Origin: Eledone cirrhosa
Taxonomy: Eukaryota
Direction of reading: 5' to 3'
Assembly (NCBI GenBank): GCA_964016885.1
Contig: OZ024741.1
Coordinates: forward strand, 379,564,001-379,628,000
Length of the DNA stretch: 64,000 nt
A program made the position numbers and the translations under genes. The notes below the pieces were generated by a model, which was not told the DNA's origin, did not search any database, and saw only the letters and a program-made list of their open reading frames with translations. Of this stretch, positions 7,392-61,027 are shown one piece after another. Every line of letters starts with the position of its first letter. The stretch's first letter is position 1.

Positions 7392-9629
7392 TAACGTCAC
7401 AGATCTTATAGGATTATTCCTACTAGTGAATTTCTCCGATATGTTTCCTGCACTCGGAGGTGGATTGTACCGTGATGATGGGCTCCTTACCCCAGTAGTA
7501 CAGACCGGGTCCGTAAACAATTAATCAGCTTCTTCCGCGACTGCGGACTTAAAATAACCCTACAAACGTCCCTAACCCGAGTAATCTTCCTAGACGTTAC
7601 CCTTGACCTCGATAATGATCTGTACTACCCATACAGGAAACCCAATGACAACCTGCACTACATCCACCGCCGGTCAAACCACCCTAGAAACATCACCAAT
7701 AACCTGGTTAAATACATCTCCCTCCGCATATCTCGTTTGTGCGCTAATGAGCAGATATTCGAGGAACATGCGCCTTATTACAACCAGGCCCTCAAGCGGA
7801 GTGGCTTCCAGGAGTAAATATCATACTGTCCAGCTTCCATTAGCGGAACCAGCAGCCGTCACCGCCGCTCACGCAACGTAACATGGTTCAATCCTCCCCA
7901 CAACGCCGAGGTGACAGCCCCTATCGGGAAAATCTTCTTTAGGCTCATCGAAAAACACTTCCCACTTCAATACCGCTACCACAACATAATCAACAAACAT
8001 ACCATCAAACTCTCCTACAGAACCACGCCTAACTTTGCACAAAACATCGTTTCCTCTAACAACAAAAAACTCAACCCCTATGGAAGGAATAACCTAGATA
8101 GCAGTGGAGAGCCGACCAGGGGGTGTAACTGTCCTGATGTATCCATTTGCCCCCTCGACAACAGATGCAGAGATGGTAATGTGATCTACCAGTGCAACGT
8201 GAAGACGGACACCTCCAATAAAGCTTATATAGGATTAACCGGTTGTGACTTCACAACCCGGCTATACCAACTCATACCTACTTTCCGAAACCCGGCCCGG
8301 CGTCACGCCACTACACTTTCGGGCCACATCTGGGACCTCAAAGATAACAATATAACCTATAATCTCACTTGGAGCTTACTGTCCAGAGCCAACTCTTACA
8401 CGAGAGGACGCCGTACGTGTAACTTATGCTCGAAGGAAACATTACAAATATGTTTTCGACGGACCAACTCCTAAACAAGAAAGACGAACTGGTAACTGCA
8501 TGCAAACACAGATTGCGTAGGACTTATCTCGCCCTCAATCCCCATAATGACACGGGGGGGGTATAGACAAGGGCTGCAAAGGTAGACGTAATATTTTCTT
8601 ATATATTTTTTATCGTTTCCTCTATATTTCCTTCTGCCCCCCACCCCTTCCTAGTCCTTCCACCCCAGATCTCCTTCCTTGTCGTCGTTCTTTTCACCTT
8701 CTCGCCCACCTCGAGGCAGCCCTTCGGTCCTCTGTAGCCTAAACTCACACCCCCTATTCTATGATAGAATTGGCCGACTCCGTTTTTTATAGCAGATGTG
8801 CTAGACCCCAGATACTTGCTTTCTTATCTGATTGCTGCCCCATTTACGTGATTTCTAGATTTCTTAGTCGTATCCCCGTTTTAGTGTCTCGTATATCAGT
8901 ATTTTTCTTTTCGGGCATTCTGAATTAATTTTTCGTATTAAATTTTTCGTATTAGTTTTTCATATATATTTTACGAGCATTTATGTAGTTTGTATTAGAA
9001 TTTCTGTATTGTAGTGGTACTCTTATATATCGTATTAGTTTCGGGGCTCTGAATTATTATTTCGTATTAGTTTTTTTGTTTTTATTATTTGGGGCCCCTA
9101 CTTGTTGACCTGAAATTGTTAGATAGATTTGGCCGATGACTACTAACTCATAAAATTATTTCACTACTATCTCGTATTTAGTATTCCGTCCCACCTATTA
9201 AACTGTTTTATAGTTTAGCAGTACCAGTGAGAGATTTGAGGATTGTAGTAGGGGAACAGTAACCAAAAATTGTGTTTTTTTATATTTTTAATATTCTTAT
9301 ATTTTTCTATATATATACTCCATATAGATTTACTTCTCTCGACCTCTTATCCTTAGCATTCTGCTGTAGTTGTAACATTCAACGCAAGATGGGTTTCCTC
9401 CACTCCCTCTCCGTCTTTCTTCTACTGGCAAGTTCAGTTATCCCTTCCTTCCACAAAAGGGCATGATAGAATTATGTGTCTAAACAACAAACTTTTGACC
9501 AATTCTTGTGACAATCACTTTTACCATATATGGAATTACCCCCTGAGAAGCTCGGCTATTCCTTTACCAGGATAAGAATTATCATTTAGTCCAGAATTAG
9601 CCGTCGAAACAGCTTGAGCTCAGCCGTCG

Positions 9630-9686: not shown

Positions 9687-9881
9687 TGTAATAAACAACA
9701 TAAGGTAATTATTCCATTTACCTGAGGTTTCTTAAAAGCAAAAATGTTGCTTTCAATCATCAGAATGAAAAAATCCTGGTGTATTTATTGACAATTGGAT
9801 TCTAAAAACAAAAATGCAATCTATATGAAAGTGAGGCTGGAGAAGGAAGAAGGAAAGGAAAAATAAAATAAAAACACACAT

Positions 9882-15093: not shown

Positions 15094-15150
<57 letters not shown>

Positions 15151-15283
15151 ATATATATGTGAATATAGACATAGAATATTCGAAAATATTCTGTATGTTT
15201 ATAATAAACATTTTGAAGACCTAATCGCTATAGAATAGAATACGTCACGTATTACAATTAGATTCTCGATAAAAGCAAGGGAA

Positions 15284-15326
15284 GTAATCTACGCGTTTCA
15301 TTCTTGTTAGAATTCATCAGGACTAC
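15284..15326 (-). ncRNA. Type I hammerhead ribozyme (first of 10 minus-strand copies, every 310 bp)
   Basis: Reverse complement of the motif at 18565-18607 (gtaatctacgcgtttcattcttgttagaattcatcaggactac). Confidence 0.9.
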
Positions 15327-18295
15327 ATATCCAGTGCTTTTATCGAGAATGACACAGCTAGAGACTTATAGAATACTTAGCTGTGTACAGGAACTGGTTT
15401 GAAAGAGCGGTTGCCGGTCCGGCAGAAATTAGAAATTGGAATAAATGCTCTGAAATAGCGATATATATGTGAATATAGACATAGAATATTCGAAAATATT
15501 CTGTATGTTTATAATAAACATTTTGAAGACCTAATCGCTATAGAATAGAATACGTCACGTATTACAATTAGATTCTCGATAAAAGCAAGGGAAGTAATCT
15601 ACGCGTTTCATTCTTGTTAGAATTCATCAGGACTACATATCCAGTGCTTTTATCGAGAATGACACAGCTAGAGACTTATAGAATACTTAGCTGTGTACAG
15701 GAACTGGTTTGAAAGAGCGGTTGCCGGTCCGGCAGAAATTAGAAATTGGAATAAATGCTCTGAAATAGCGATATATATGTGAATATAGACATAGAATATT
15801 CGAAAATATTCTGTATGTTTATAATAAACATTTTGAAGACCTAATCGCTATAGAATAGAATACGTCACGTATTACAATTAGATTCTCGATAAAAGCAAGG
15901 GAAGTAATCTACGCGTTTCATTCTTGTTAGAATTCATCAGGACTACATATCCAGTGCTTTTATCGAGAATGACACAGCTAGAGACTTATAGAATACTTAG
16001 CTGTGTACAGGAACTGGTTTGAAAGAGCGGTTGCCGGTCCGGCAGAAATTAGAAATTGGAATAAATGCTCTGAAATAGCGATATATATGTGAATATAGAC
16101 ATAGAATATTCGAAAATATTCTGTATGTTTATAATAAACATTTTGAAGACCTAATCGCTATAGAATAGAATACGTCACGTATTACAATTAGATTCTCGAT
16201 AAAAGCAAGGGAAGTAATCTACGCGTTTCATTCTTGTTAGAATTCATCAGGACTACATATCCAGTGCTTTTATCGAGAATGACACAGCTAGAGACTTATA
16301 GAATACTTAGCTGTGTACAGGAACTGGTTTGAAAGAGCGGTTGCCGGTCCGGCAGAAATTAGAAATTGGAATAAATGCTCTGAAATAGCGATATATATGT
16401 GAATATAGACATAGAATATTCGAAAATATTCTGTATGTTTATAATAAACATTTTGAAGACCTAATCGCTATAGAATAGAATACGTCACGTATTACAATTA
16501 GATTCTCGATAAAAGCAAGGGAAGTAATCTACGCGTTTCATTCTTGTTAGAATTCATCAGGACTACATATCCAGTGCTTTTATCGAGAATGACACAGCTA
16601 GAGACTTATAGAATACTTAGCTGTGTACAGGAACTGGTTTGAAAGAGCGGTTGCCGGTCCGGCAGAAATTAGAAATTGGAATAAATGCTCTGAAATAGCG
16701 ATATATATGTGAATATAGACATAGAATATTCGAAAATATTCTGTATGTTTATAATAAACATTTTGAAGACCTAATCGCTATAGAATAGAATACGTCACGT
16801 ATTACAATTAGATTCTCGATAAAAGCAAGGGAAGTAATCTACGCGTTTCATTCTTGTTAGAATTCATCAGGACTACATATCCAGTGCTTTTATCGAGAAT
16901 GACACAGCTAGAGACTTATAGAATACTTAGCTGTGTACAGGAACTGGTTTGAAAGAGCGGTTGCCGGTCCGGCAGAAATTAGAAATTGGAATAAATGCTC
17001 TGAAATAGCGATATATATGTGAATATAGACATAGAATATTCGAAAATATTCTGTATGTTTATAATAAACATTTTGAAGACCTAATCGCTATAGAATAGAA
17101 TACGTCACGTATTACAATTAGATTCTCGATAAAAGCAAGGGAAGTAATCTACGCGTTTCATTCTTGTTAGAATTCATCAGGACTACATATCCAGTGCTTT
17201 TATCGAGAATGACACAGCTAGAGACTTATAGAATACTTAGCTGTGTACAGGAACTGGTTTGAAAGAGCGGTTGCCGGTCCGGCAGAAATTAGAAATTGGA
17301 ATAAATGCTCTGAAATAGCGATATATATGTGAATATAGACATAGAATATTCGAAAATATTCTGTATGTTTATAATAAACATTTTGAAGACCTAATCGCTA
17401 TAGAATAGAATACGTCACGTATTACAATTAGATTCTCGATAAAAGCAAGGGAAGTAATCTACGCGTTTCATTCTTGTTAGAATTCATCAGGACTACATAT
17501 CCAGTGCTTTTATCGAGAATGACACAGCTAGAGACTTATAGAATACTTAGCTGTGTACAGGAACTGGTTTGAAAGAGCGGTTGCCGGTCCGGCAGAAATT
17601 AGAAATTGGAATAAATGCTCTGAAATAGCGATATATATGTGAATATAGACATAGAATATTCGAAAATATTCTGTATGTTTATAATAAACATTTTGAAGAC
17701 CTAATCGCTATAGAATAGAATACGTCACGTATTACAATTAGATTCTCGATAAAAGCAAGGGAAGTAATCTACGCGTTTCATTCTTGTTAGAATTCATCAG
17801 GACTACATATCCAGTGCTTTTATCGAGAATGACACAGCTAGAGACTTATAGAATACTTAGCTGTGTACAGGAACTGGTTTGAAAGAGCGGTTGCCGGTCC
17901 GGCAGAAATTAGAAATTGGAATAAATGCTCTGAAATAGCGATATATATGTGAATATAGACATAGAATATTCGAAAATATTCTGTATGTTTATAATAAACA
18001 TTTTGAAGACCTAATCGCTATAGAATAGAATACGTCACGTATTACAATTAGATTCTCGATAAAAGCAAGGGAAGTAATCTACGCGTTTCATTCTTGTTAG
18101 AATTCATCAGGACTACATATCCAGTGCTTTTATCGAGAATGACACAGCTAGAGACTTATAGAATACTTAGCTGTGTACAGGAACTGGTTTGAAAGAGCGG
18201 TTGCCGGTCCGGCAGAAATTAGAAATTGGAATAAATGCTCTGAAATAGCGATATATATGTGAATATAGACATAGAATATTCGAAAATATTCTGTA

Positions 18296-18385
18296 TGTTT
18301 ATAATAAACATGTTTATAATAAACATGTTTATAATAAACATGTTTATAATAAACATGTTTATAATAAACATGTTTATAATAAACA
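18296..18385. repeat. 6 x 15-bp near-palindromic repeat at the symmetry axis of the array
   Basis: (TGTTTATAATAAACA)6; the unit is a hairpin present once in every 310-bp monomer. Confidence 0.95.
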
Positions 18386-18564
18386 TACAGAATATTTTCG
18401 AATATTCTATGTCTATATTCACATATATATCGCTATTTCAGAGCATTTATTCCAATTTCTAATTTCTGCCGGACCGGCAACCGCTCTTTCAAACCAGTTC
18501 CTGTACACAGCTAAGTATTCTATAAGTCTCTAGCTGTGTCATTCTCGATAAAAGCACTGGATAT

Positions 18565-18607
18565 GTAGTCCTGATGAATTCTAACAAGAATGAAACGCGT
18601 AGATTAC
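18565..18607 (+). ncRNA. Type I hammerhead ribozyme (first of 7 plus-strand copies, every 310 bp)
   Basis: GTAGTC-CTGATGA-ATTCT(AACA)AGAAT-GAAA-CGCG-TA-GATTAC. Stem I GTAGTC/GATTAC (one G-U), intact CUGAUGA and GAAA, 5-bp stem II, palindromic minimal stem III, GUA cleavage triplet (cut after 18601). Confidence 0.9.
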
Positions 18608-20642
18608 TTCCCTTGCTTTTATCGAGAATCTAATTGTAATACGTGACGTATTCTATTCTATAGCGATTAGGTCTTCAAAATGTTTATTATAAACATACAG
18701 AATATTTTCGAATATTCTATGTCTATATTCACATATATATCGCTATTTCAGAGCATTTATTCCAATTTCTAATTTCTGCCGGACCGGCAACCGCTCTTTC
18801 AAACCAGTTCCTGTACACAGCTAAGTATTCTATAAGTCTCTAGCTGTGTCATTCTCGATAAAAGCACTGGATATGTAGTCCTGATGAATTCTAACAAGAA
18901 TGAAACGCGTAGATTACTTCCCTTGCTTTTATCGAGAATCTAATTGTAATACGTGACGTATTCTATTCTATAGCGATTAGGTCTTCAAAATGTTTATTAT
19001 AAACATACAGAATATTTTCGAATATTCTATGTCTATATTCACATATATATCGCTATTTCAGAGCATTTATTCCAATTTCTAATTTCTGCCGGACCGGCAA
19101 CCGCTCTTTCAAACCAGTTCCTGTACACAGCTAAGTATTCTATAAGTCTCTAGCTGTGTCATTCTCGATAAAAGCACTGGATATGTAGTCCTGATGAATT
19201 CTAACAAGAATGAAACGCGTAGATTACTTCCCTTGCTTTTATCGAGAATCTAATTGTAATACGTGACGTATTCTATTCTATAGCGATTAGGTCTTCAAAA
19301 TGTTTATTATAAACATACAGAATATTTTCGAATATTCTATGTCTATATTCACATATATATCGCTATTTCAGAGCATTTATTCCAATTTCTAATTTCTGCC
19401 GGACCGGCAACCGCTCTTTCAAACCAGTTCCTGTACACAGCTAAGTATTCTATAAGTCTCTAGCTGTGTCATTCTCGATAAAAGCACTGGATATGTAGTC
19501 CTGATGAATTCTAACAAGAATGAAACGCGTAGATTACTTCCCTTGCTTTTATCGAGAATCTAATTGTAATACGTGACGTATTCTATTCTATAGCGATTAG
19601 GTCTTCAAAATGTTTATTATAAACATACAGAATATTTTCGAATATTCTATGTCTATATTCACATATATATCGCTATTTCAGAGCATTTATTCCAATTTCT
19701 AATTTCTGCCGGACCGGCAACCGCTCTTTCAAACCAGTTCCTGTACACAGCTAAGTATTCTATAAGTCTCTAGCTGTGTCATTCTCGATAAAAGCACTGG
19801 ATATGTAGTCCTGATGAATTCTAACAAGAATGAAACGCGTAGATTACTTCCCTTGCTTTTATCGAGAATCTAATTGTAATACGTGACGTATTCTATTCTA
19901 TAGCGATTAGGTCTTCAAAATGTTTATTATAAACATACAGAATATTTTCGAATATTCTATGTCTATATTCACATATATATCGCTATTTCAGAGCATTTAT
20001 TCCAATTTCTAATTTCTGCCGGACCGGCAACCGCTCTTTCAAACCAGTTCCTGTACACAGCTAAGTATTCTATAAGTCTCTAGCTGTGTCATTCTCGATA
20101 AAAGCACTGGATATGTAGTCCTGATGAATTCTAACAAGAATGAAACGCGTAGATTACTTCCCTTGCTTTTATCGAGAATCTAATTGTAATACGTGACGTA
20201 TTCTATTCTATAGCGATTAGGTCTTCAAAATGTTTATTATAAACATACAGAATATTTTCGAATATTCTATGTCTATATTCACATATATATCGCTATTTCA
20301 GAGCATTTATTCCAATTTCTAATTTCTGCCGGACCGGCAACCGCTCTTTCAAACCAGTTCCTGTACACAGCTAAGTATTCTATAAGTCTCTAGCTGTGTC
20401 ATTCTCGATAAAAGCACTGGATATGTAGTCCTGATGAATTCTAACAAGAATGAAACGCGTAGATTACTTCCCTTGCTTTTATCGAGAATCTAATTGTAAT
20501 ACGTGACGTATTCTATTCTATAGCGATTAGGTCTTCAAAATGTTTATTATAAACATACAGAATATTTTCGAATATTCTATGTCTATATTCACATATATAT
20601 CGCTATTTCAGAGCATTTATTCCAATATATATATATATATAT

Positions 20643-21406
20643 ATATAAATATAAATTATCGAGAATCGCATTTCGGCCCACGAAATAACGAAAACAACCT
20701 CCGAGATATGTGGCAAATGCACAATGAATCGGATGAACCAGAGCTATAACAAACTTTAAAGGCCGAACACACTGAGACGATGGTTAAATAATCATTCGCA
20801 TAGCCAAAACAACGATCAAGTAATTCGGGTCAAACAAATAAAAATATCTGTGATTGAAAATATACCCGGACCCCTGGAAGGTTGGTAAAATCCACCATTT
20901 GGGTTCCTGCGGCTCCTAAATCAATTACTGTCCGCTAACATAAATAATGTTAGGCTTCTGGTAAGATGATTGAACAAGGAAGCCACTTTCTCAACAGGTT
21001 TTAGTTCAATGTTAATACAAGGACTGACTATTGCTGATCGCACGTGGGGATCGGCAAGGGGGGCAACCCCTATATCAGGCGAATGAATTCAGTTGTGTAT
21101 GTTATTGCAAAAATGCAAAAACATCACAAATAAAATAGAGTTCTCATCAGAAGGGTTAACATTAATATAAGCTATTGATCAGTCAATAGAATCAACTAAA
21201 AAATCAAAAAAATTAACTGGTCAATAGCTAGAGTCTGGAGATTAATATAAATATAAATTATCGAGAATCGCATTTCGGCCCACGGAATAACGAAAAACAA
21301 CCTCCGAGATGTGTGGCAAGTGCTCAATGATTCGGATGAACCAGAGCTATAACAAACGTTAAAGGCCGACCACACTGAGACGATGTTTAAACAATCATTC
21401 GCATAG

Positions 21407-21708: not shown

Positions 21709-21875
21709 GAATCTGTGTTGCATCATAACATATTTAATGACATATTACATATGTTTCACTGTCGATCAGATCGAGGAACGATCTATTATCGATCAATAAT
21801 GGATCGTTCCCCCAGGTTTTCGTCAGTGAAACGTATGTAATATGTATTTAAATATGTCATGATGTAACACAGATT
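21709..21875. repeat. Hairpin/MITE-like palindromic element
   Basis: aatctgtgttgcatcat...tttcactg / cagtgaaa...atgatgtaacacagatt arms with an inner ggaacgatc..gatcgttcc hairpin. Confidence 0.7.
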
Positions 21876-21926
21876 CTTTGTTAATTTATTTTTAAATAAT
21901 GGGTGTGTACATATATATATATAGTT

Positions 21927-22045
21927 TTAATATAGATGAGATTCTACAGGACTAGAACTGTTTCATTCTTGAGAAATCACCAGGATTCCTGGTGATTGCT
22001 CAAGAATGAAACAGTTCTAGTCCTCTAGAATCTCATCTATATTAA
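21927..22045. repeat. 119-bp palindrome made of two head-to-head hammerhead-derived arms
   Basis: Symmetric about 21986; each arm reads ctggtgatt(g/t)ctcaagaatGAAAcagttctagtcc; single arm with intact CTGATGA at 60918. Confidence 0.8.
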
Positions 22046-22120
22046 GACTTTTATACTCTGCTATGTATTGAGTACCTTACTTACTGTGGTCACCTCCGAT
22101 TCAACCTGGAATAATTTACC

Positions 22121-23006: not shown

Positions 23007-25324
<2,318 letters not shown>

Positions 25325-28502: not shown

Positions 28503-31159
28503 TTCCTTGAATCTCAGTCATTGATGTTGGTTAACTGGAAAGTCCGTTGGATTGAATATCAAGCCACTACCTGCAGCCTCAGATATTCAGGACGTATCGG
28601 AGGGTTCTTGCTGTTCCAAGCAAGCATGCCTTTTGAAGCGTTCCAAAAAGCGTGAAGGGGCCGATTTTCTTTAACCATCCCTGGAAACTTTTGGAGATAG
28701 TCCCCAGTGCGCCTACGACAATCGGGATCACTTTGACTTCATGGCAGTTCCAAATCCTTTTCACCTCCCACTTTAGGTCCTGGTATCGGTTAATTTTCTC
28801 CCTCTCCTTCTCTTGCACTCTCGTGTCGAACGGGCAGGCCACATCCACAATCAGACACGATCTTTTTTCTTTGTCCACAACCACCAGGTCAGGTCTATTG
28901 TGTTCCAGTTTTTTGTCCGTCTGTATCCTAAAATCCCACAGCACCTTCACCTGATTGTTCTCCATCACCGCCTCTGGCCTATGCTCATACCATTTCTCAG
29001 AATGTGGTAAATTGTTTACTTTGCACAGGTGCCAGTGGATCACCCTGCCCATCACATCGTGTTTCCAGCCCTTATAGTGGGTCTGGGCTAGGTGTTTACA
29101 CTCGGACACAACGTGAGCCACAGTCTCCACTCTCTCTCCACAGATCCTGCACAGTGGGCTAGCCTCCTCCTTGTAAATATGGTGCTTCAACCACTTCGTT
29201 TTGAGGACCTGCTCCTGCGCAGCCATTAGCATTCCTTCTGTAGCCTTTTTGAGGTCTCCTCTTCTCAACCAGTTCCATGTCTGTGGATCTCTAAATTCAG
29301 TTTTCTCAAAGAAGGTACTATGAAGGGATTTTCCCTTAAGGCTGCTCTTCCTCCTTGATGTTATTTCCTCCTTGGACATCCCCTGGCCTATTGTCCCCTC
29401 CTTCAGTACAGCTCTGAGCATTGGCTCCTTACTATAGGTCACGTATTTGTATAGGTTGTTTTTCTCCATCTGAACACAGTCCTCTATGCTGATAAGACCT
29501 CTTCCACCCTCAGATCTCCTTAGGTAGAGTCTATCGACATCACTCCTCTTGTGGAACATGTTGTAGATAGTCAATAGCTTCCTAGTCTTCCTATCCATTT
29601 CTTTTTGTTCAGCAACATTCCATCTCAGAATTCCCGCACTGTACCTAATAACAGACACAGCTCGGGAATTTACTGCGCTTATGGCATTTCTGCTGTTCAG
29701 ATGTGACTTCAATACGCTCCTTACTCTCCGAATGTATTCAGTTCTTAACAATTCCTTCATTTTTTTGTTCTTTATGCCATCAGCCTCCAGAACGCCCAAA
29801 TACTTGTATCCTTCCTCCGAGTCAATTTCCTTTATCATCTCACCTGTTGGTATCTGGATCCCGTTACTTCTGCTCAACCTACCCCTCCTCATCACAATGA
29901 GTCCACATTTACCAATACCAAACTGCATACATATATCACTGCTGAAAATACGGACAGTGTCAACAAGCACATCCAACTCCTTCTCACTTTTCCCGAAGAG
30001 CTTAAGATCGTCCATGAAGAGGAGGTGATTGATGGTAAGCTCTCCCCTTCCCAACTTGTATCCTGCTCTCACTTTTCGCAGCATGATGGTCAAGGGCATC
30101 AGGGCAAGGACAAACAACAGAGGGGACAGGCTATCTCTCTGGAAGATACATCTCTTGATCTTCACGCTTCCCAAGGATACTCCAGTTGATGTCAACTCTG
30201 TCTCCCAGGACCCCATACTCCTGCCCAGCAACTGGCTGATGTTATCTGCCACCCTGAAGATCTCCAGGCTTTTGGTGATCCAAGAATGAGGCACCATGTC
30301 AAATGCCTTTCTGTAGTCTATCCATCCCATGGCAAGATCAGTGTGTCTCCTCCTGCAATTCCCCATTACCATCTTATCAATAAGTAACTGGTCCTTTGTA
30401 CCACGTGACTTCTTTCGGCATCCTTTCTGTTCGTCCGGTAACAAGTTGTTTGTGTGGAGGTGATGGTAGATTTCCTCAGACACAATGCTCGTCAACAGTT
30501 TCCACATTACGGATAGACATGTGATAGGTCTATAGTTGGTAACATCATTACCCTTGATTCGGTCTTTCATTATCAGAACTGTGGTACCTTTTGTCAACCA
30601 CTCTGGCACCTCACCCGACACCAAGCAGTCATTGAACATGGCTGTCAGCTTCGAGTGGGGGGATGTTAAATGTTTAATCCAATACCCCTGCACACCATCT
30701 GGGCCTGGTGATTTCCAGTTGGTTAGTTTTTTGGCCTGCCCCTTAAGAGTTTCAACTGTGATACTCAAATCAGTCTGTTGTTGTGCCTGCTCACCGATCT
30801 CCCTCTGTACTGTCTCAATCCACCCTGCCTGGACATTATGTCTAACATCCTGCTCCCATATTCCTCTCCAGAATGTTTTAGTTTGCTCCGTCCCAGGGAT
30901 CAAGTCGTTGCCTCTTTCTTTCCCCTCAAGCTGTCCAAACAGCATCTTCTGGTTGTTGTCGAACATGCGGTTCTGTTTATACTGACTGACTCTGTTCTCA
31001 TATCGCCTGATTTTTGCACTCTTTGCTACAATGCGTTGCTTCAGTTCCTCTATGATAATATTTAGCTTTTTCCTCCTCGTTTTGTACTTTATTTCCAGTC
31101 TCTTTTTAGTGTCTGTGTTTTTTAGTGACCCATTCAGTAGGGACTCAAGCTTTCCAATG
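28503..31159 (-). mobile_element. Dong/R4 non-LTR retrotransposon, 5'-truncated, in (TAA)n
   Basis: Long open RT-RLE frame flanked by (TAA)n tracts. Confidence 0.92.
28579..31158 (-). CDS. Reverse transcriptase + CCHC zinc knuckle + restriction-like endonuclease (5'-truncated; Met-initiated part 28579-30966, 795 aa)
   Basis: NYRPITCL, WIDYRKAFDMVPH, IFQRDSLSP, HLLFMDDLKLF, YKYLG, CRICG..ETVAHVVSEC, RPDLVVVD..IVDVACP; the frame stays open upstream of the Met to ~31158. Confidence 0.88.
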   Translation of the reverse strand: MGKLESLLNGSLKNTDTKKRLEIKYKTRRKKLNIIIEELKQRIVAKSAKIRRYENRVSQYKQNRMFDNNQKMLFGQLEGKERGNDLIPGTEQTKTFWRGIWEQDVRHNVQAGWIETVQREIGEQAQQQTDLSITVETLKGQAKKLTNWKSPGPDGVQGYWIKHLTSPHSKLTAMFNDCLVSGEVPEWLTKGTTVLIMKDRIKGNDVTNYRPITCLSVMWKLLTSIVSEEIYHHLHTNNLLPDEQKGCRKKSRGTKDQLLIDKMVMGNCRRRHTDLAMGWIDYRKAFDMVPHSWITKSLEIFRVADNISQLLGRSMGSWETELTSTGVSLGSVKIKRCIFQRDSLSPLLFVLALMPLTIMLRKVRAGYKLGRGELTINHLLFMDDLKLFGKSEKELDVLVDTVRIFSSDICMQFGIGKCGLIVMRRGRLSRSNGIQIPTGEMIKEIDSEEGYKYLGVLEADGIKNKKMKELLRTEYIRRVRSVLKSHLNSRNAISAVNSRAVSVIRYSAGILRWNVAEQKEMDRKTRKLLTIYNMFHKRSDVDRLYLRRSEGGRGLISIEDCVQMEKNNLYKYVTYSKEPMLRAVLKEGTIGQGMSKEEITSRRKSSLKGKSLHSTFFEKTEFRDPQTWNWLRRGDLKKATEGMLMAAQEQVLKTKWLKHHIYKEEASPLCRICGERVETVAHVVSECKHLAQTHYKGWKHDVMGRVIHWHLCKVNNLPHSEKWYEHRPEAVMENNQVKVLWDFRIQTDKKLEHNRPDLVVVDKEKRSCLIVDVACPFDTRVQEKEREKINRYQDLKWEVKRIWNCHEVKVIPIVVGALGTISKSFQGWLKKIGPFTLFGTLQKACLLGTARTLRYVLNI

Positions 31160-31180
31160 TATTATTATTATTATTATTAC

Positions 31181-39695: not shown

Positions 39696-39775
39696 ATACT
39701 TTGGGAGGGTCATGTTGCCAATAAGAAACACACGCACCAGTTTTTTCACTTCAATTTATTATATACCATATCAAA

Positions 39776-40612
39776 ATGAACATACTGATTGCGGATTTGG
39801 TACGGGTGATGATAAATGTGTCCCGCATGTGCAACCCCGAAGAACTAGAGAGACACATACAACACTTCATCCACCGTATGCAGTTCTCTGGCTACAATCA
39901 GAGAGATAGAATCAGAGTGTATAAAGGAGCCAGAACCAAATGGGAAAAAATGGTAAATAATGACATAAATGGGACCTGCCCCTTGTATAGGAGCAAATTT
40001 TGGAATAGAATAGAAAGAACTAGGAACAAGGCCAATAGAATAAACTCATGGTATGATAGCAATAAATACCAGAGTGTAATGTTCATCAATACAACCCCTA
40101 GAGGCGAACTAGCCTACAAATTTAGAAGGGCCCCAAATAAACATAATCTCAATATTAAGATAGTAGAAAGACCTGGTACCTCCGTAAAAACACTTATTAG
40201 CAAGACATACCCGTTCCAAAGACCCTCATGTATAGATAAGAAATGTATAACCTGTAAAATAAGCCCCCATATTAACTGTAAAACTAGAAATGTAGTGTAT
40301 AGCATAAGATGTACTGAAGGACAATGTAGAAACAAAAATATAGTGTACATAGGTGAGAGAGCTCGTAGAATAGGGGAACGAATAAATGAACACTGGCGAG
40401 ATCTCCAAGATAATAAAGAATCATCTGTGCTCTACCAACATGCTAAGATAGAACACAGGGGTAGATTAGAGAGCATAGAAATAAAAATAGAATCCACACA
40501 CAGAAAAGACGCAATGTTTAGGCAAATTACAGAGGCAGTAAGCATAAAAGAATTAAAACCAAAATTAAATAGAAAATATGAGTGGAACAGCAACATCACA
40601 ACTTACAATTAA
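39776..40612 (+). CDS. PLE polyprotein C-terminal fragment: RT thumb, Cys-rich linker, GIY-YIG endonuclease (278 aa)
   Basis: CITCK..CKTRNVVYSIRC...IVYIGERARRIGERINEH...RQITEAVSI..KPKLN. Confidence 0.8.
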   Translation: MNILIADLVRVMINVSRMCNPEELERHIQHFIHRMQFSGYNQRDRIRVYKGARTKWEKMVNNDINGTCPLYRSKFWNRIERTRNKANRINSWYDSNKYQSVMFINTTPRGELAYKFRRAPNKHNLNIKIVERPGTSVKTLISKTYPFQRPSCIDKKCITCKISPHINCKTRNVVYSIRCTEGQCRNKNIVYIGERARRIGERINEHWRDLQDNKESSVLYQHAKIEHRGRLESIEIKIESTHRKDAMFRQITEAVSIKELKPKLNRKYEWNSNITTYN

Positions 40613-40823
40613 GGACAAAATGAAAACACACACACACATAGAACAAACAACCAACCAACAATAAATAAATAAATAAATAAATAAACAAATAGAAAAATGA
40701 ACACAAACACACACAGACACCCGGATGTGGCGCATGCGCAAACTGAGCACACAACACACGCACAGAAACAAAATGGCGTAGGATAGAAGAAAGGAAAGGC
40801 ACAGAAACGAAGAAGGAATCTCC

Positions 40824-40868
40824 AGTCACTGAAGAGGTCACATAGTGTGTGACGAAAGGACTATGACT
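40824..40868 (+). ncRNA. Minimal hammerhead-like motif in PLE terminus
   Basis: agtca-CTGAAGA-g-gtcaca(tagtg)tgtgac-GAAA-ggac-TA-tgact; second copy on the minus strand at 48338-48381. Confidence 0.65.
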
Positions 40869-41088
40869 ATATATAAACAACTATCTCGTTGTGGAACCAA
40901 CCAACCAACCAAAAATTTATAAGTTTGTAAATTTGTAAATTTATAAATTTATAAATATATAATAAATTGAAGTGAAAGCAACTGGTGCGTGTGTTTCTTA
41001 TTGGCAACATGACCCTCCCAAAGTATAACAATATCGGTTTCAACACACGATTTCAGATAAAGAATCTTGCTAAACAAATTCAGAAACG

Positions 41089-41194
<106 letters not shown>

Positions 41195-41209: not shown

Positions 41210-43430
41210 GTAGAAGGGGTATTTAATTTTTGGAAGTCCGACTAATATAAATATTTGTAACTGATTTAGAGCATTTTATACTAGAACCGAACACTTTATA
41301 CCTAGAAGACCGAAAATTAATCTGAAAGACCACAAAAGAAACTACCAGTCAGACTTATAGCACCATCTAAATCACACTTAGGCATAGTTAGTAAATATAG
41401 GCTCTACTATCCATTCCATAAAATTAATGAGAACCTAAACTATGTAAGTTTTTACTCTAATCATCATGGATCTATGAAGAGCACTATTGTTAATTCTATC
41501 CAACAACGTATTTCACGCATCTCCGCTAATAAAAACATTTTTGACGATACGGCAGAATATTATAATGAAGCTTTAAATAGAGCAGGTTATATAAATAAGT
41601 TTAAATACATCGACAACAGTAATATGGCAAATAACCCTACTATTAATTATAATTATAATACAAAATTTAACTTAGACTCTAAAACTAACAAGAAATAGAA
41701 CTAGAAATATTATTTGGTAGTCACCCCCATTCTCATTAAGCGTTAAAATACATTTAGCAAAGCTATTCTTTAAAGCACTAGATAAATATTTTCCTAAAGC
41801 ACACATATACCACTCAATGTTTAACAGACATACTATAAAACTATCCTACTCTACTACTATGAACATAGCACGAAACATAAATAGAATTAATAATAGAAAT
41901 TGAAACCCTAACCAAAATAACCAAAATAGCAGTAATATATCTAGCAATATCCAACATAATAGTATCGTTCTGAATAACAACAACTCCGCAAAATGTAACT
42001 GTAGAATTAAATCAAACTGTCCTTTACAAAATATGTGTTTAGATAAGGACGTGGTCTATAAATGTACATTCAAAACTAGTGATAATATATTTAACTATGT
42101 AGGTGCAACTTCTACAGAATTTAAAAGTCGCTGGAATAATCACAAATGCTCTTTCAAAAGATTTGATAAAAAATGTTCAACTTCTCTTTCTAACCTAATA
42201 TGGAACATAAAATGCAAGAATATGGACTATTCATTAACTGGAGAAATAATTTCGAAGCACCCGCGTACCGGAACACAGCTTTATCCAGATTCTGAAAATT
42301 GTGTGTTGAGGAAATTTTTTTCATACTTAAATGTAAGAACTTAATGTAAGAACGAATTTATTTAATTATTGTAGTCATTGCCTGAATTCAACATACAGAA
42401 CTATATATAAATTATAATTATACTTATAATATTTCTACTTATTTTCATAACAATCTTATCCACTGGGTTTTAATATATTGATATCACTAAATCATAATCT
42501 CTATAACATTTGCTATAATTCCACTTCATAAAGTTTCATAAAATATATACATATATCATTCTAATTTTTTTTTTATTTTAATCTTAATTTTAATTGTAAT
42601 TTTAATCTTAATAATTTTTTATACTTTATTTTTATTTCCTTAATTTGTTATTTCTTTTAAAAATTACTTATCTCTTATAAATTATTTAAAAAAAAATGTT
42701 CTCAAATGGCTAAATATATCTTTCAATATTTATACTTATTTTGACTAAATACTCTCATACTAACGAATAAATAAATTAAAGTGGAGTTTTTCCGTATCTT
42801 CCAATTTTAAAATATATAAATATAAATATTCTTATTAACTCAGATAATTTAATTTAATTTAACTTAATATTTACTTACATTAAATACAAAACCAATATCC
42901 CTCATAAGTCAGTAAAACAATTATCTATAACATAATATAGCCATATATTTATTTATATATATATTTATTTATTTACTTATAACAGAAAATGTTATATTAT
43001 AAACGAATTTTAAACAACTAATAATCGTAGATAGACGTACTATTAAGATAAAATACTTAGAATATATTTCCTCCAAATTAACGTTATATGAGTGTTATTC
43101 ATCCTCTCTTGTCTATTTCTTCTCTCTCTCTCGTACTATTTTTTTTTATCTTTCTCCCCTCATATCTTCTCCATCTTCTACTCCAGTGTCATTTAAATAA
43201 ACGGTTGTTTTTCAAATATTTACATATTTATTTGCATATTAATTCACACATTAATTCACACATTAATTTGAATAATCACTAGTATATTTCCACAATCCAG
43301 TGAATTTCCAACCGATAAGGTATGATTTTCATGGGTATGTCCCTATTTATAAAACAAACTTTGTATTTTATTTGATAAAAGCGTTACCAATGTTGTCTTG
43401 GTATCCTTGATATATATATAACAACATAAA
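41210..43430 (+). mobile_element. Degenerate Penelope-like element
   Basis: LKDHK, SIQQRISRISAN, CNC..CPL..CLDKDVVYKC..YVGATSTEFKSRWNNHKCSF. Confidence 0.75.
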
Positions 43431-44500: not shown

Positions 44501-46285
44501 TGTCGAGTCACCTTAACGTATGTTGATAACTTTCCTCACAACTTGTTCTACCAAGCTTTGGAATATTACTAATTACTGAATATATATATATATATTCAGT
44601 AATTAGGAATATTCCAAAGCTTGGTAGAACAAGTTGTGAGGAAAGTTATCAACATACGTTAAGGTGACTCGACAGGTTGGTAGGGATTCTGTATTGGAAA
44701 CACTAACAAACGAGGAGTGTAATCAAAAAAGAGAAATAGGACGAAGGTAAACAGTTACACAAGAATTTAATCCACGTATTATCAATTGTTTCATCAGAAT
44801 TTCAGTCCATTATTGCTACACTATGTAACAATAGGCAATCAAAAAAGATACTGTTGCATCCGAATTTTCAAAATACAAAGTTGAAATGACCTTAGGAAAT
44901 GAAATATGGGGTAGTAGTGTAAGATAGAGGAACAGAGAGAGAGAGGGCAACAGAGAGGGAGAGCGAGAGAGAAAAGGGACGGAGGTAGGGAGATAAAGAG
45001 AAAGAGATAGTGTGGTGTGAGAGGATTTGTATAGAATATAGTTATGTTAGAGAAGGGAGGGGGAGGAGGGATGTGTGCTAAAAGTTGTGATGAGAGAAGG
45101 AAGATAGAATTTTAAGTGGCAGTTGGTAGTGGACAGGCGAAAGTTTTACCAGAGAATAGATAAAGGAAGAAAGTATTAAATTTCATATATAGTCTAATTT
45201 TAGGAGTGTAGAATTGTTATTTAGGGTAGAAAAGGAAGAGAGGTAGTGTTAAGATTTAGTTGAAGGTTTGAAGTGTGAGAACTTGGCTTTTAGTTTATGC
45301 TGGCAAAAGATTGACCTTTCAATTTTGTTGTTGAGTAGTTGGTGGCCTGAGCTTAGGATATGGAAGAGCTCATTATTACACAACGGGCACGTTTTCATCC
45401 CACTCCGGTATGGAGGAGCATGTGAGAGTTTGGTCCATTTAAGGGTGTATTGTGGTTACTCCCTTTTAAGTGCCAAATTTTGTCGGCGAGAGTGAGTTAT
45501 GTAACGGTGTTGGGGGTGCTTTATTGCGTAACGATGCGTGTACCAACGAGTTTTGAAGGTGTTTGCAGTGCTGCCTATGTAGTGCCAGGTTTGGTTGTCC
45601 GACTCAACCGAGCACCTGTACACTAGGTTTGAATGCAAACATACGTTATTCTATGGACAAGTCTCTGGAAGGTGGCAATTATAATTTCTGTTATGGGCAG
45701 TTGTGGAGTTATAGATGGGCTGGGATGTGTGTCTGAGTGTCTTTTGTGCATACTGTTTGTTAGTGGGTGGTTGTGTATTAGGTGTATTATGGTGTTGAGT
45801 GATTGGGGTGTTGTTGTTACGGAGTTTTTTTACGTTGAGCATCTTAATGTGTGCGTCTAGGTTTGGTGCAGTGGAATAAGATAGTCTAATTGTTTTGGTA
45901 TTAAGTATACTACTATATTTATGTGAATTTGGAAAGTGTTTTTTTATAATTTTGTAGAATGTGGAAGGTAAGTTAGAGCTAATAGAAGAGTTAAAAATAG
46001 GATTATACCAAATGTAAGATCTACTCCGTGTTCTGTTTTGCTTTGATGTTGCTGTTGTATTTGTGGTGTGGTTATTATAAGGGGGTCTAGGTACGTGTGT
46101 GCGGATGTTTGTGGGGCGTTTGGCGTGTCTATGGTTATGTGTTTTATGGTTCTGAATGTCTATGTATTCTAGTTTGTCGGTGTGGCAAGCCCGTTCTAAT
46201 GCAGTGAAATTCTGATGAAACAATTGTTAATACGTGGATTAAATCCTTTTGTAACTGTTTACCTTCGTCCTATTTCTCTTTTTTG
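44501..46285 (-). mobile_element. Penelope-like element 3' part with inverted segments at both ends
   Basis: WYNPIF, IRLSYST, NC..CP, VYRCSV..YIGSTANTFKTRWYTH; 44730-44810 inverted at 46205-46285; (TA)n-centred palindrome 44501-44674. Confidence 0.8.
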
Positions 46286-60895: not shown

Positions 60896-60917
60896 AATTA
60901 TATATATATATATATAT

Positions 60918-60974
60918 CTGATGATTTCTAATGAATGAAACAGTTCTAGTCCTGTAGAATCTCATCTATATTAA

Positions 60975-60977
<3 letters not shown>
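60918..60977 (+). ncRNA. Hammerhead core fragment lacking the 5' stem I strand
   Basis: CTGATGA-tttc(taat)gaat-GAAA-cagt-TC; tail matches the arms of the 21927-22045 palindrome; between (TA)n tracts. Confidence 0.5.

Positions 60978-61027
<50 letters not shown>

Follow-up and report, generated by a model that had tools for sequence, protein, structure and literature searches.

The array at positions 15151-20626 of the window (the whole 64,000-nucleotide stretch of Eledone cirrhosa DNA analyzed here) is best explained as a single, very young insertion of a non-LTR retrozyme, here a 310-nt non-coding repeat that carries a hammerhead. Its most informative feature is that the repeat is laid out in two inverted arms. 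On balance, we favor an explanation in which this two-armed non-LTR retrozyme was written by the enzyme of a Penelope-like element (PLE), from both ends of a cut and from one RNA. That the element is a retrozyme is nearly certain, and a PLE enzyme priming from both ends is very likely; the template was probably a circular monomer. The anatomy, copy number, fixed ends, shared haplotype and junction microhomology described here are observed.

Two inverted arms built from a single unit

TRF reported two 310-bp arrays, 15151-18311 and 18370-20626, and by unit matching a single unit (310 bp, GC about 0.33) accounts for every base of 15151-18311 and 18379-20626. The two arms lie head-to-head, minus then plus, embedded in (TA)n, and the left and right flanks of the locus are unrelated to each other. 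The features are as follows.

15097..15150, no strand: left flank, (TA)n target (TRF and printed flank)
15151..18311, ribozyme on -: left arm, 10.2 identical 310-nt units (unit matching); its outer (3') end is the 'short' end, unit base 139 (131-139, as TA blurs the position)
15284, 15594, last at 18074, -: the 10 left-arm cores (first two and last; motif scan)
18295..18386, no strand: arm joint, 6.1 copies of a 15-bp unit (TRF and unit matching)
18379..20626, ribozyme on +: right arm, 7.25 identical units (unit matching); its outer (3') end is the 'long' end, unit base 165
18565, 18875, last at 20425, +: the 7 right-arm cores (first two and last; motif scan)
18541..18629, +: hammerhead domain, closed by a 16-bp stem pairing unit 250-265 with 13-28 (fold)
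18565..18607, +: one type I hammerhead, predicted cut after 18601
18680..18740, +: hairpin-rich stretch, unit 79-139, directly 5' of the two end sites
20601..20626, +: 'tail' of 26 nt (up to about 35 given TA ambiguity), at the long end only
20627..20653, no strand: right flank, (TA)n target (TRF)

A preliminary description had treated the locus as a 310-bp tandem satellite with 17 ribozyme copies. The 310-bp unit stands, but the single array does not, as TRF separates two arrays and the motif strands show them to be inverted; the 43-nt motif was indeed found 17 times, 7 on + and 10 on -. Also as described earlier, the unit has no credible ORF: across three joined units, the longest stop-free frame is 59 aa, or 30 aa from an ATG, and no protein-coding ORF, including one for RT/GIY-YIG, was found. 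No LTR structure is evident from the insertion ends, which fall inside the unit, on (TA)n.

A type I hammerhead with a vestigial helix III

Each hammerhead consists of a 6-bp helix I, CUGAUGA, a 5-bp helix II with an AACA loop, and GAAA, with a vestigial helix III of just 1-2 bp and a palindromic loop (ACGCGU). The core and helices I and II are present in 17/17 core-spanning units, bearing out the earlier claim of a complete type I core in every unit, and the predicted cut falls at the site named then, after the A of GTA at 18601. The Rfam comparison proposed at the same time agreed only in part: no model matched at its gathering score over the window, and the best by E-value, Hammerhead_HH9, scored 23 bits (E 0.0035), below its gathering threshold of 52. 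The closing 16-bp stem is kept in a sister family, with letters changed on both sides. Conservation in that family peaks around unit 59-154 (80%), a part that includes the hairpin-rich unit 79-139, which may be a signal for RT binding or initiation.

A lone core with a short palindromic helix III is unlikely to cut well (PMC4209133). Because helix III here is vestigial and palindromic, cleavage probably requires a dimer, and a monomer-only cleavage test could thus read falsely negative. A linear two-core RNA is predicted to fold as a double hammerhead, with a cross-copy helix I probability of 0.97-1.0 and a 6-bp helix III; for a circular dimer, the cross helix III is not predicted to form. According to the available text of 10.64898/2026.07.22.740005, 8/9 Xenopus retrozyme dimers failed to cut in vitro. 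In the commonest haplotype of the present family (36/51 arrays), a U-U replaces the first helix II pair. In 4/51 arrays an extra nucleotide is fixed 2 nt away from the cut site; we considered it as a ligation scar and found it too ambiguous to call.

We infer that the locus encodes a self-cleaving, circularizing RNA. The term 'viroid-like', in the sense of RNA-to-RNA replication, found no support, as the predicted fold of the unit is branched, not rod-like, and motif scanning detected the hammerhead in a single polarity of the unit.

Insertions across the genome share two fixed ends

Pattern scans of the genome for the core, on which our family counts rest, returned 2,528 exact and 15,230 relaxed matches, and 0 for a reversed-pattern control. 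We mapped 71 separate insertions: 56 were -/+, one was -+-+, 14 were single-armed and none was tail-to-tail, so that 57/71 were two-armed, invariably 5'-to-5'. Although 48 of the 71, including that in the window, were not picked by the core alone (most were found through one outer end), 18/23 of those picked by the core alone were two-armed. In this count, L083 was dropped as a duplicate of the insertion in L084, L040 was merged with L039, arms shorter than 30 nt were disregarded (L045 has one), and L085, which runs off its stretch, and L070, which abuts a gap, were scored as single-armed. Because loci were chosen by core patterns, the sparing of core positions by mutation was not used as evidence.

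In every two-armed insertion a short end (bin 124-139) is paired with a long end (bin 154-172), and the tail of 26 nt, or up to about 35 with TA ambiguity, is at one end in 57/57. The outer ends are mostly at exactly unit bases 139 and 165, almost all on (TA)n, and across the genome a TA run directly borders 410 short and 806 long ends. Target duplications of 12-15 bp can be seen at L034, L065 and L072, whose flanking sequence is not TA throughout. The sister family, which is 68-70% identical and has a different hammerhead, ends at the equivalents of these two sites. Inner ends, by contrast, do not gather at the cut site (4/114 within 10 nt, vs 7.7 expected), so templates do not appear to end there. 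The earlier proposal, a non-LTR retrozyme whose mobility probably depends on a Penelope-like RT, is supported by this genome-wide insertion footprint, and more strongly than the array by itself could show.

An independent sequencing run contains variants of the unit, and in it TA joins the unit at the two sites already named (loose ends 18740 and 18755). None of the listed runs that contain the unit is recorded as RNA, which speaks neither for nor against expression. Of four runs of unspecified kind, one had 596 variant contigs of the unit and the other three each gave one closed 310-nt contig; since tandem DNA gives the same contig, we did not count these toward a circular RNA.

One haplotype per insertion

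The majority haplotype was common to both arms in 35/38 insertions, with 19 haplotypes in play, compared to a permuted mean of 4.1 and a maximum of 14 in 10,000 permutations. In 46/51 arrays no variant was confined to only some units; 24 different haplotypes are each fixed across whole arrays, and 8/38 insertions have a fixed variant that is private within the sample. The remaining 5/51 arrays are mosaic (L044, L074, L079, L085 and L095). One circle is not always the whole story, because L095 switches haplotype within one arm and the two arms of L079 differ from each other. We read the insertions as each copied from one RNA template, probably a circle, although copying from linear RNA transcribed through several units of an already uniform donor array would equally give one haplotype per insertion.

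Joints between the arms

No insert was present at 43/58 joints, and the mean overlap was 3.0 nt vs 0.76 by chance, by a measure that allows mismatches and runs somewhat high against the exact null. The 15-bp unit at the window joint derives from a near-palindrome at unit bases 79-95, and in all of its copies the loop letter is the one seen on the top strand of the left arm. This six-fold 15-base repeat is found at the window locus only and is unique in the genome. PLE RTs are sisters of the telomerase RT, and we considered jointly that a PLE dimer carries out rolling-circle TPRT on circular RNA, that autonomous PLEs of this genome are likewise copied from unit-length circles of 3.5 kb, and that the six-fold 15-nt repeat arose by telomerase-like reiteration on a short template. 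As a joint reading this is doubtful; if true, each insertion would be a fossil of rolling-circle priming from both ends of one break.

Penelope-like elements in the same genome

As a control we used an intact element of the same genome that encodes a 717-aa protein, which we take to be a PLE from RT and C-terminal GIY-YIG motifs recognized by eye; Pfam and PDB sequence searches gave no name for this protein or for the window's seven PLE-like fragments. At 10/10 two-armed loci of this element a short end is combined with a long one, the two sites being separated by 80 nt; the rule holds in just 4/6 for a second PLE family. Arrays of the control are uniform (1.9 within-locus vs 20.6 between-locus substitutions per 1,300 nt), including five 3.5-kb copies with 0 differences, and motif scans found no canonical hammerhead in it. 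A hammerhead-made circle may therefore be unnecessary for uniform multimers.

For three PLE families, all drawn from the window in a genome that contains further ones, a sample of 30 loci per family and 14 further stretches showed no sequence in common with the unit. The best local alignment scored 39, which was equalled in 17/200 shuffles, and blastn likewise gave no similarity. A hairpin just past the start sites did not match between the unit and the control PLE. The tails of two tested families measure about 59 and 80 nt. One match to the unit, at L120, was followed up as a PLE partner; there, a sister retrozyme had inserted into a PLE.

Published work on PLEs, as far as the available portions of these papers go, lists an inverted 5'-truncated copy, a 30-40 bp tail and a (TA)n bias as hallmarks (PMC8557442). 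A purified PLE cuts and extends both strands, the tail being delimited by the two internal positions of the RNA at which it starts, and its insertion in vitro is not blocked by hammerhead mutants (PMC11167929).

How the insertions may arise

On the explanation we favor, the array would be transcribed and neighboring cores, joined by pairing of their ACGCGU palindromes, would form a double hammerhead that cuts after GUA. A host ligase would close the 310-nt monomer, which would be protected from recutting because it has one core only. A PLE protein (RT/GIY-YIG) would bind the unit 59-165 region and cut (TA)n on both strands, and each DNA end would prime cDNA at its own internal site, the two sites being separated by 26-35 nt. 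Each RT would circle the template a variable number of times, and the two cDNAs would be joined through 1-5 nt of microhomology or a short templated insert; at the window locus, joining would have occurred at the palindrome within the unit itself, where a 15-nt stutter is repeated six-fold.

The same enzyme and two-end priming could instead have acted on a long linear RNA, left uncut and transcribed through a donor array of uniform units, with the hammerhead as a passenger or as acting later. Donor arrays are themselves uniform, mosaics such as L085, L074 and L095 are easy to produce on a multimer template, the control PLE likewise makes uniform tandems with no detected hammerhead, and uncut RNA was the main substrate in vitro in the available text of PMC11167929. 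However, the fixation of 24 haplotypes across whole arrays is then unexplained without a one-unit bottleneck, homogenization looks weak, as older arrays like L044 retain scattered private changes, and arms are as long as 27-30 units. We thus consider a linear template rather unlikely. It is also improbable that, in general, one cDNA folded back on an internal palindrome and self-primed its second arm, as proposed for PLE inversions in what is available of PMC3846280. The window locus does turn exactly at palindrome 79-95, with the right arm resuming where fold-back predicts, and at L031 and L072 the turn coincides with the 16-bp inverted repeat of the unit. Most joints, though, sit at unrelated positions of the two arms, both outer ends are fixed and yet different, and the longer arm can be either one (the short-end arm in 22 cases, the long-end arm in 33, with 1 tie; n=56, r=0.14), which fold-back of one arm cannot produce. 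As a general rule we disfavor it; it may be the last joining step at single loci.

Ordinary satellite growth, with single units landing and expanding in place by unequal crossover or slippage, is the model favored in the available discussion of 10.64898/2026.07.22.740005, and the two variants of L074 that recur at a six-unit spacing do resemble a local duplication. It gives no reason for strict 5'-to-5' arms or two fixed ends and leaves the identical haplotype in both inverted arms, without divergence, unexplained, making it very improbable here. An assembly or long-read artefact, such as fold-back chimeras or polished repeats, might be suspected from units that are 100% identical around a palindromic center, and the 15-bp stutter, which occurs once and is seen in the assembly alone, may be a local error. 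For the layout as a whole an artefact is hardly credible: the flanks of the window array are unrelated, 57 loci show this layout with differing joints, haplotypes and target duplications, and the independent run has the same variants and TA-joined ends.

Relation to known elements

The element class is already known. The closest class, as described in the available text, is the metazoan non-LTR retrozymes (Cervera and de la Pena 2020, PMC7229834; Li, Clavereau and Pollet 2026), which share a tandem unit of 150-450 bp with one type I hammerhead each, a GC content below 45%, the lack of both ORF and LTR, a copy number in the thousands and PLEs in the same genome; the amphibian dimer-type retrozymes also have a short palindromic helix III. 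Those of PMC7229834 and 10.64898/2026.07.22.740005 are described as direct tandem repeats, whereas here there are mostly two opposed arms with two fixed ends. In the available text, the terms 'inverted' and 'orientation' are absent from PMC7229834, and 'palindrom', 'head-to-head' and 'target site' from the preprint. Expression and cleavage have been demonstrated for published retrozymes and are proposed for the present family, and Xenopus retrozymes have a pLTR homologue, unlike the unit among the three PLE families sampled here. The retrozyme and PLE literature, covered mainly as titles and abstracts and including few subscription papers, contained no two-armed retrozyme insertions; supplements (PMC7229834 Fig. 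S9, and that of the preprint) may bear on this.

EN-bearing PLE insertions, as portrayed in the available parts of PMC8557442, PMC3846280 and PMC11167929, likewise show an inverted 5'-truncated copy, a tail at one end, a (TA)n target, 8-15 bp duplications and two internal start sites. In contrast to these, our unit has no RT/EN ORF and both arms are multimers of one small unit; the family behaves as a PLE passenger, not as a PLE. Non-autonomous PLEs of the Chlamys MRC1 type are similarly non-coding, multicopy head-to-tail and PLE-moved (PMC8557442, available text), but they resemble their autonomous partner at the 3' end, a match our unit lacks in three families, and most Chlamys elements have no canonical hammerhead, which is present here.

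In the accessible text of PMC7229834 and 10.64898/2026.07.22.740005, PLE copying of retrozyme circles into tandem DNA is proposed, not shown, and PMC8557442, in its available part, calls the origin of PLE tandem and inverted structures undefined. In the present family the substrate is 310 nt long, the target is known, two start sites are predicted and the one-short-one-long rule is strict, so that both PLE copying of circles and the formation of PLE structures become directly testable.

Inverted hammerhead arrays at the locus

The preliminary description placed a single 310-bp tandem here. The 310-bp repeat stands, but it forms two inverted arrays with a 15-bp repeat between them, and (TA)n borders both outer sides of the pair.

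Arrays of the locus (window positions; arms from tandem repeat finding and motif scan)
15151-18311: 310-bp array, left arm, ribozyme on minus strand
18370-20626: 310-bp array, right arm, ribozyme on plus strand
18295-18386: 15-bp repeat between arrays, 6.1 copies

A motif scan of the window found the previously quoted hammerhead motif in the repeat units, with 10 copies on the minus strand and 7 on the plus; because the arrays carry it on opposite strands, they form an inverted pair whose RNA 5' ends lie in the middle. With unit base 1 set just past the predicted cut (window 18602), the outer end of the left arm is at base 139 and that of the right arm at 165. The units do not differ from one another, and none has a frame longer than 59 aa, in keeping with the lack of a credible ORF claimed earlier.

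The core comprises CUGAUGA, GAAA and a GUA triplet, and its helices I and II are 6 and 5 bp long. In an Rfam check the best match was Hammerhead_HH9 (E 0.0035), under its gathering score. The monomer folds more stably than shuffles (z -4.4), and cleavage is its predicted activity. Helix III is the palindrome ACGCGU; PMC4209133 describes such hammerheads as poor cutters singly that act as dimers in tandem repeats, so that monomer circles would be spared from cutting. Folding predicts the double hammerhead form for linear RNA with two cores and does not predict it for a circular dimer. Judged by every feature testable in sequence, the locus is a real non-LTR retrozyme, as first proposed, and its family is new as far as the retrozyme/hammerhead and Penelope-like element (PLE) literature searched shows.

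Insertions carry a Penelope footprint

Genome-wide, we counted 2,528 exact and 15,230 relaxed cores (reversed controls, 0). We mapped 71 insertions: the window's own, 23 chosen by core and the remainder by one outer end. Two arms were visible in 57, every one 5'-to-5', and a single arm in 14; none of the 71 was tail-to-tail. All 57 two-armed insertions had one short outer end (near 139) and one long (near 165), and either arm may be the longer. Exact ends adjoining TA numbered 410 short and 806 long across the genome. Inner ends were scattered across the unit, with 4/114 close to the cut site versus 7.7 expected. Where the arms meet, 43/58 joints lacked an insert and overlapped by a mean of 3.0 nt, versus 0.76 by chance; the other 15 held 1-58 nt, several copied from sequence close by. 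Target duplications of 12-15 bp were seen at three loci with non-TA flanks. One four-segment insertion (L073) has the inversion joint unit 65/29 twice.

PMC8557442 describes PLE insertions as targeting (TA)n, carrying an inverted copy truncated at its 5' end, and having a tail of 30-40 bp on one side only; it calls the origin of these features undefined. PMC11167929 reports that a purified PLE cuts and extends both strands, with synthesis initiated from two sites inside the RNA that delimit the tail. The insertion pattern of the 310-nt family is a Penelope footprint: its fixed short and long ends, 5'-to-5' arms and (TA)n targets back the mobilisation by Penelope-like RTs suggested in the preliminary description. 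Unlike published non-LTR retrozymes, this family enters the genome as a pair of opposed multimers bearing PLE ends.

A sister family (unit 305-320 nt, 68-70% identity; L120:2072-2216, L166-L195) has a hammerhead of different sequence and the same layout, with helix III mostly palindromic; its closing stem and upstream hairpins are retained, with letters altered on both sides. Its insertions stop at the two equivalent sites; thus, the end sites belong to the RNA and not merely to the TA run. This family is older.

PLE-like and hammerhead-like features (window positions unless stated)
7818-8474; also G000:C1:437198614-437213097, C1:91474479-91489007 (L226-L230): 717-aa PLE-like family, 3.53-kb period
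39725-41090: copy of a second, young PLE family, ends about 59 nt apart
23523-24559, 41321-42344, 45651-46226: more broken PLE-like RT/GIY-YIG fragments, by eye
about 21850-22100 minus, about 60915-60990 plus; also L041, L045, L058, L060: second hammerhead-like family

The first, very young family has an intact 717-aa frame with RT and GIY-YIG motifs (read by eye), and at 10/10 two-armed loci it pairs a short end with a long one, the two lying 80 nt apart. The second keeps the short/long rule in 4/6 loci; relatives of its window copy are 96-97% identical, the open frames reach 1,280 aa, and that copy's pLTR has a hammerhead-like motif with triplet CUA. The three broken fragments had no Pfam match, and no autonomous partner for the 310-nt unit was found among the PLE families compared.

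Helix II is similar in the second hammerhead-like family, which lies inside a long hairpin adjoining (TA)n. Another such motif, with a 10-bp helix II, lies at about 9700-9775 minus (relative in L164). An 860-aa stop-free frame at 28579-31161 minus, with an RVT_1 domain (E 1.7e-19), is by appearance a non-LTR retrotransposon.

A probable one-unit template

The two arms had a common majority haplotype in 35/38 insertions, versus 4.1 by permutation; 46/51 arrays lacked variants present in only some of their units, and 8/38 insertions had a fixed variant private within the sample. Together, these patterns point to a one-unit bottleneck, whose simplest source is a monomer circle copied many times, a route proposed in the Discussion of PMC7229834. 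Copying a uniform donor array's linear transcript would give an identical one-generation picture. Also against the circle are five mosaic arrays, one with a haplotype switch inside an arm, and the autonomous 717-aa PLE, which likewise builds uniform tandems (five copies; per 1,300 nt, 0-5 substitutions separate copies at one locus and ~21 those at different loci) and in which motif scans found no canonical hammerhead; that family may itself be a case of an autonomous PLE using circular templates of unit length. Closed 310-nt contigs occur in sequencing runs, where circle and tandem DNA would look alike; among the runs listed for the unit, none is recorded as RNA.

Two insertions carry two haplotypes each, which may reflect template switching or two RNA molecules: in L095 the change falls inside one arm after two units, and in L079 just the innermost unit of one arm agrees with the other arm.

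At the window's joint, the change of orientation falls on the near-palindrome of the unit itself (bases 79-95). The 15-mer stands there six times over, and in every copy the loop letter is the one found on the top strand of the left arm; a genome-wide search found no doubled 15-mer elsewhere. Had either cDNA end served as template for the other, the loop letter would be the opposite one, so we considered three sources for the stutter, among which this one case does not decide: later slippage at the apex of the long palindrome, local assembly error, or repeated realignment on a sense template (RNA or DNA) via a 2-nt AT match, which, if true, would be telomerase-like. The class is already known; what this family offers is a clean genomic handle on two proposed steps.
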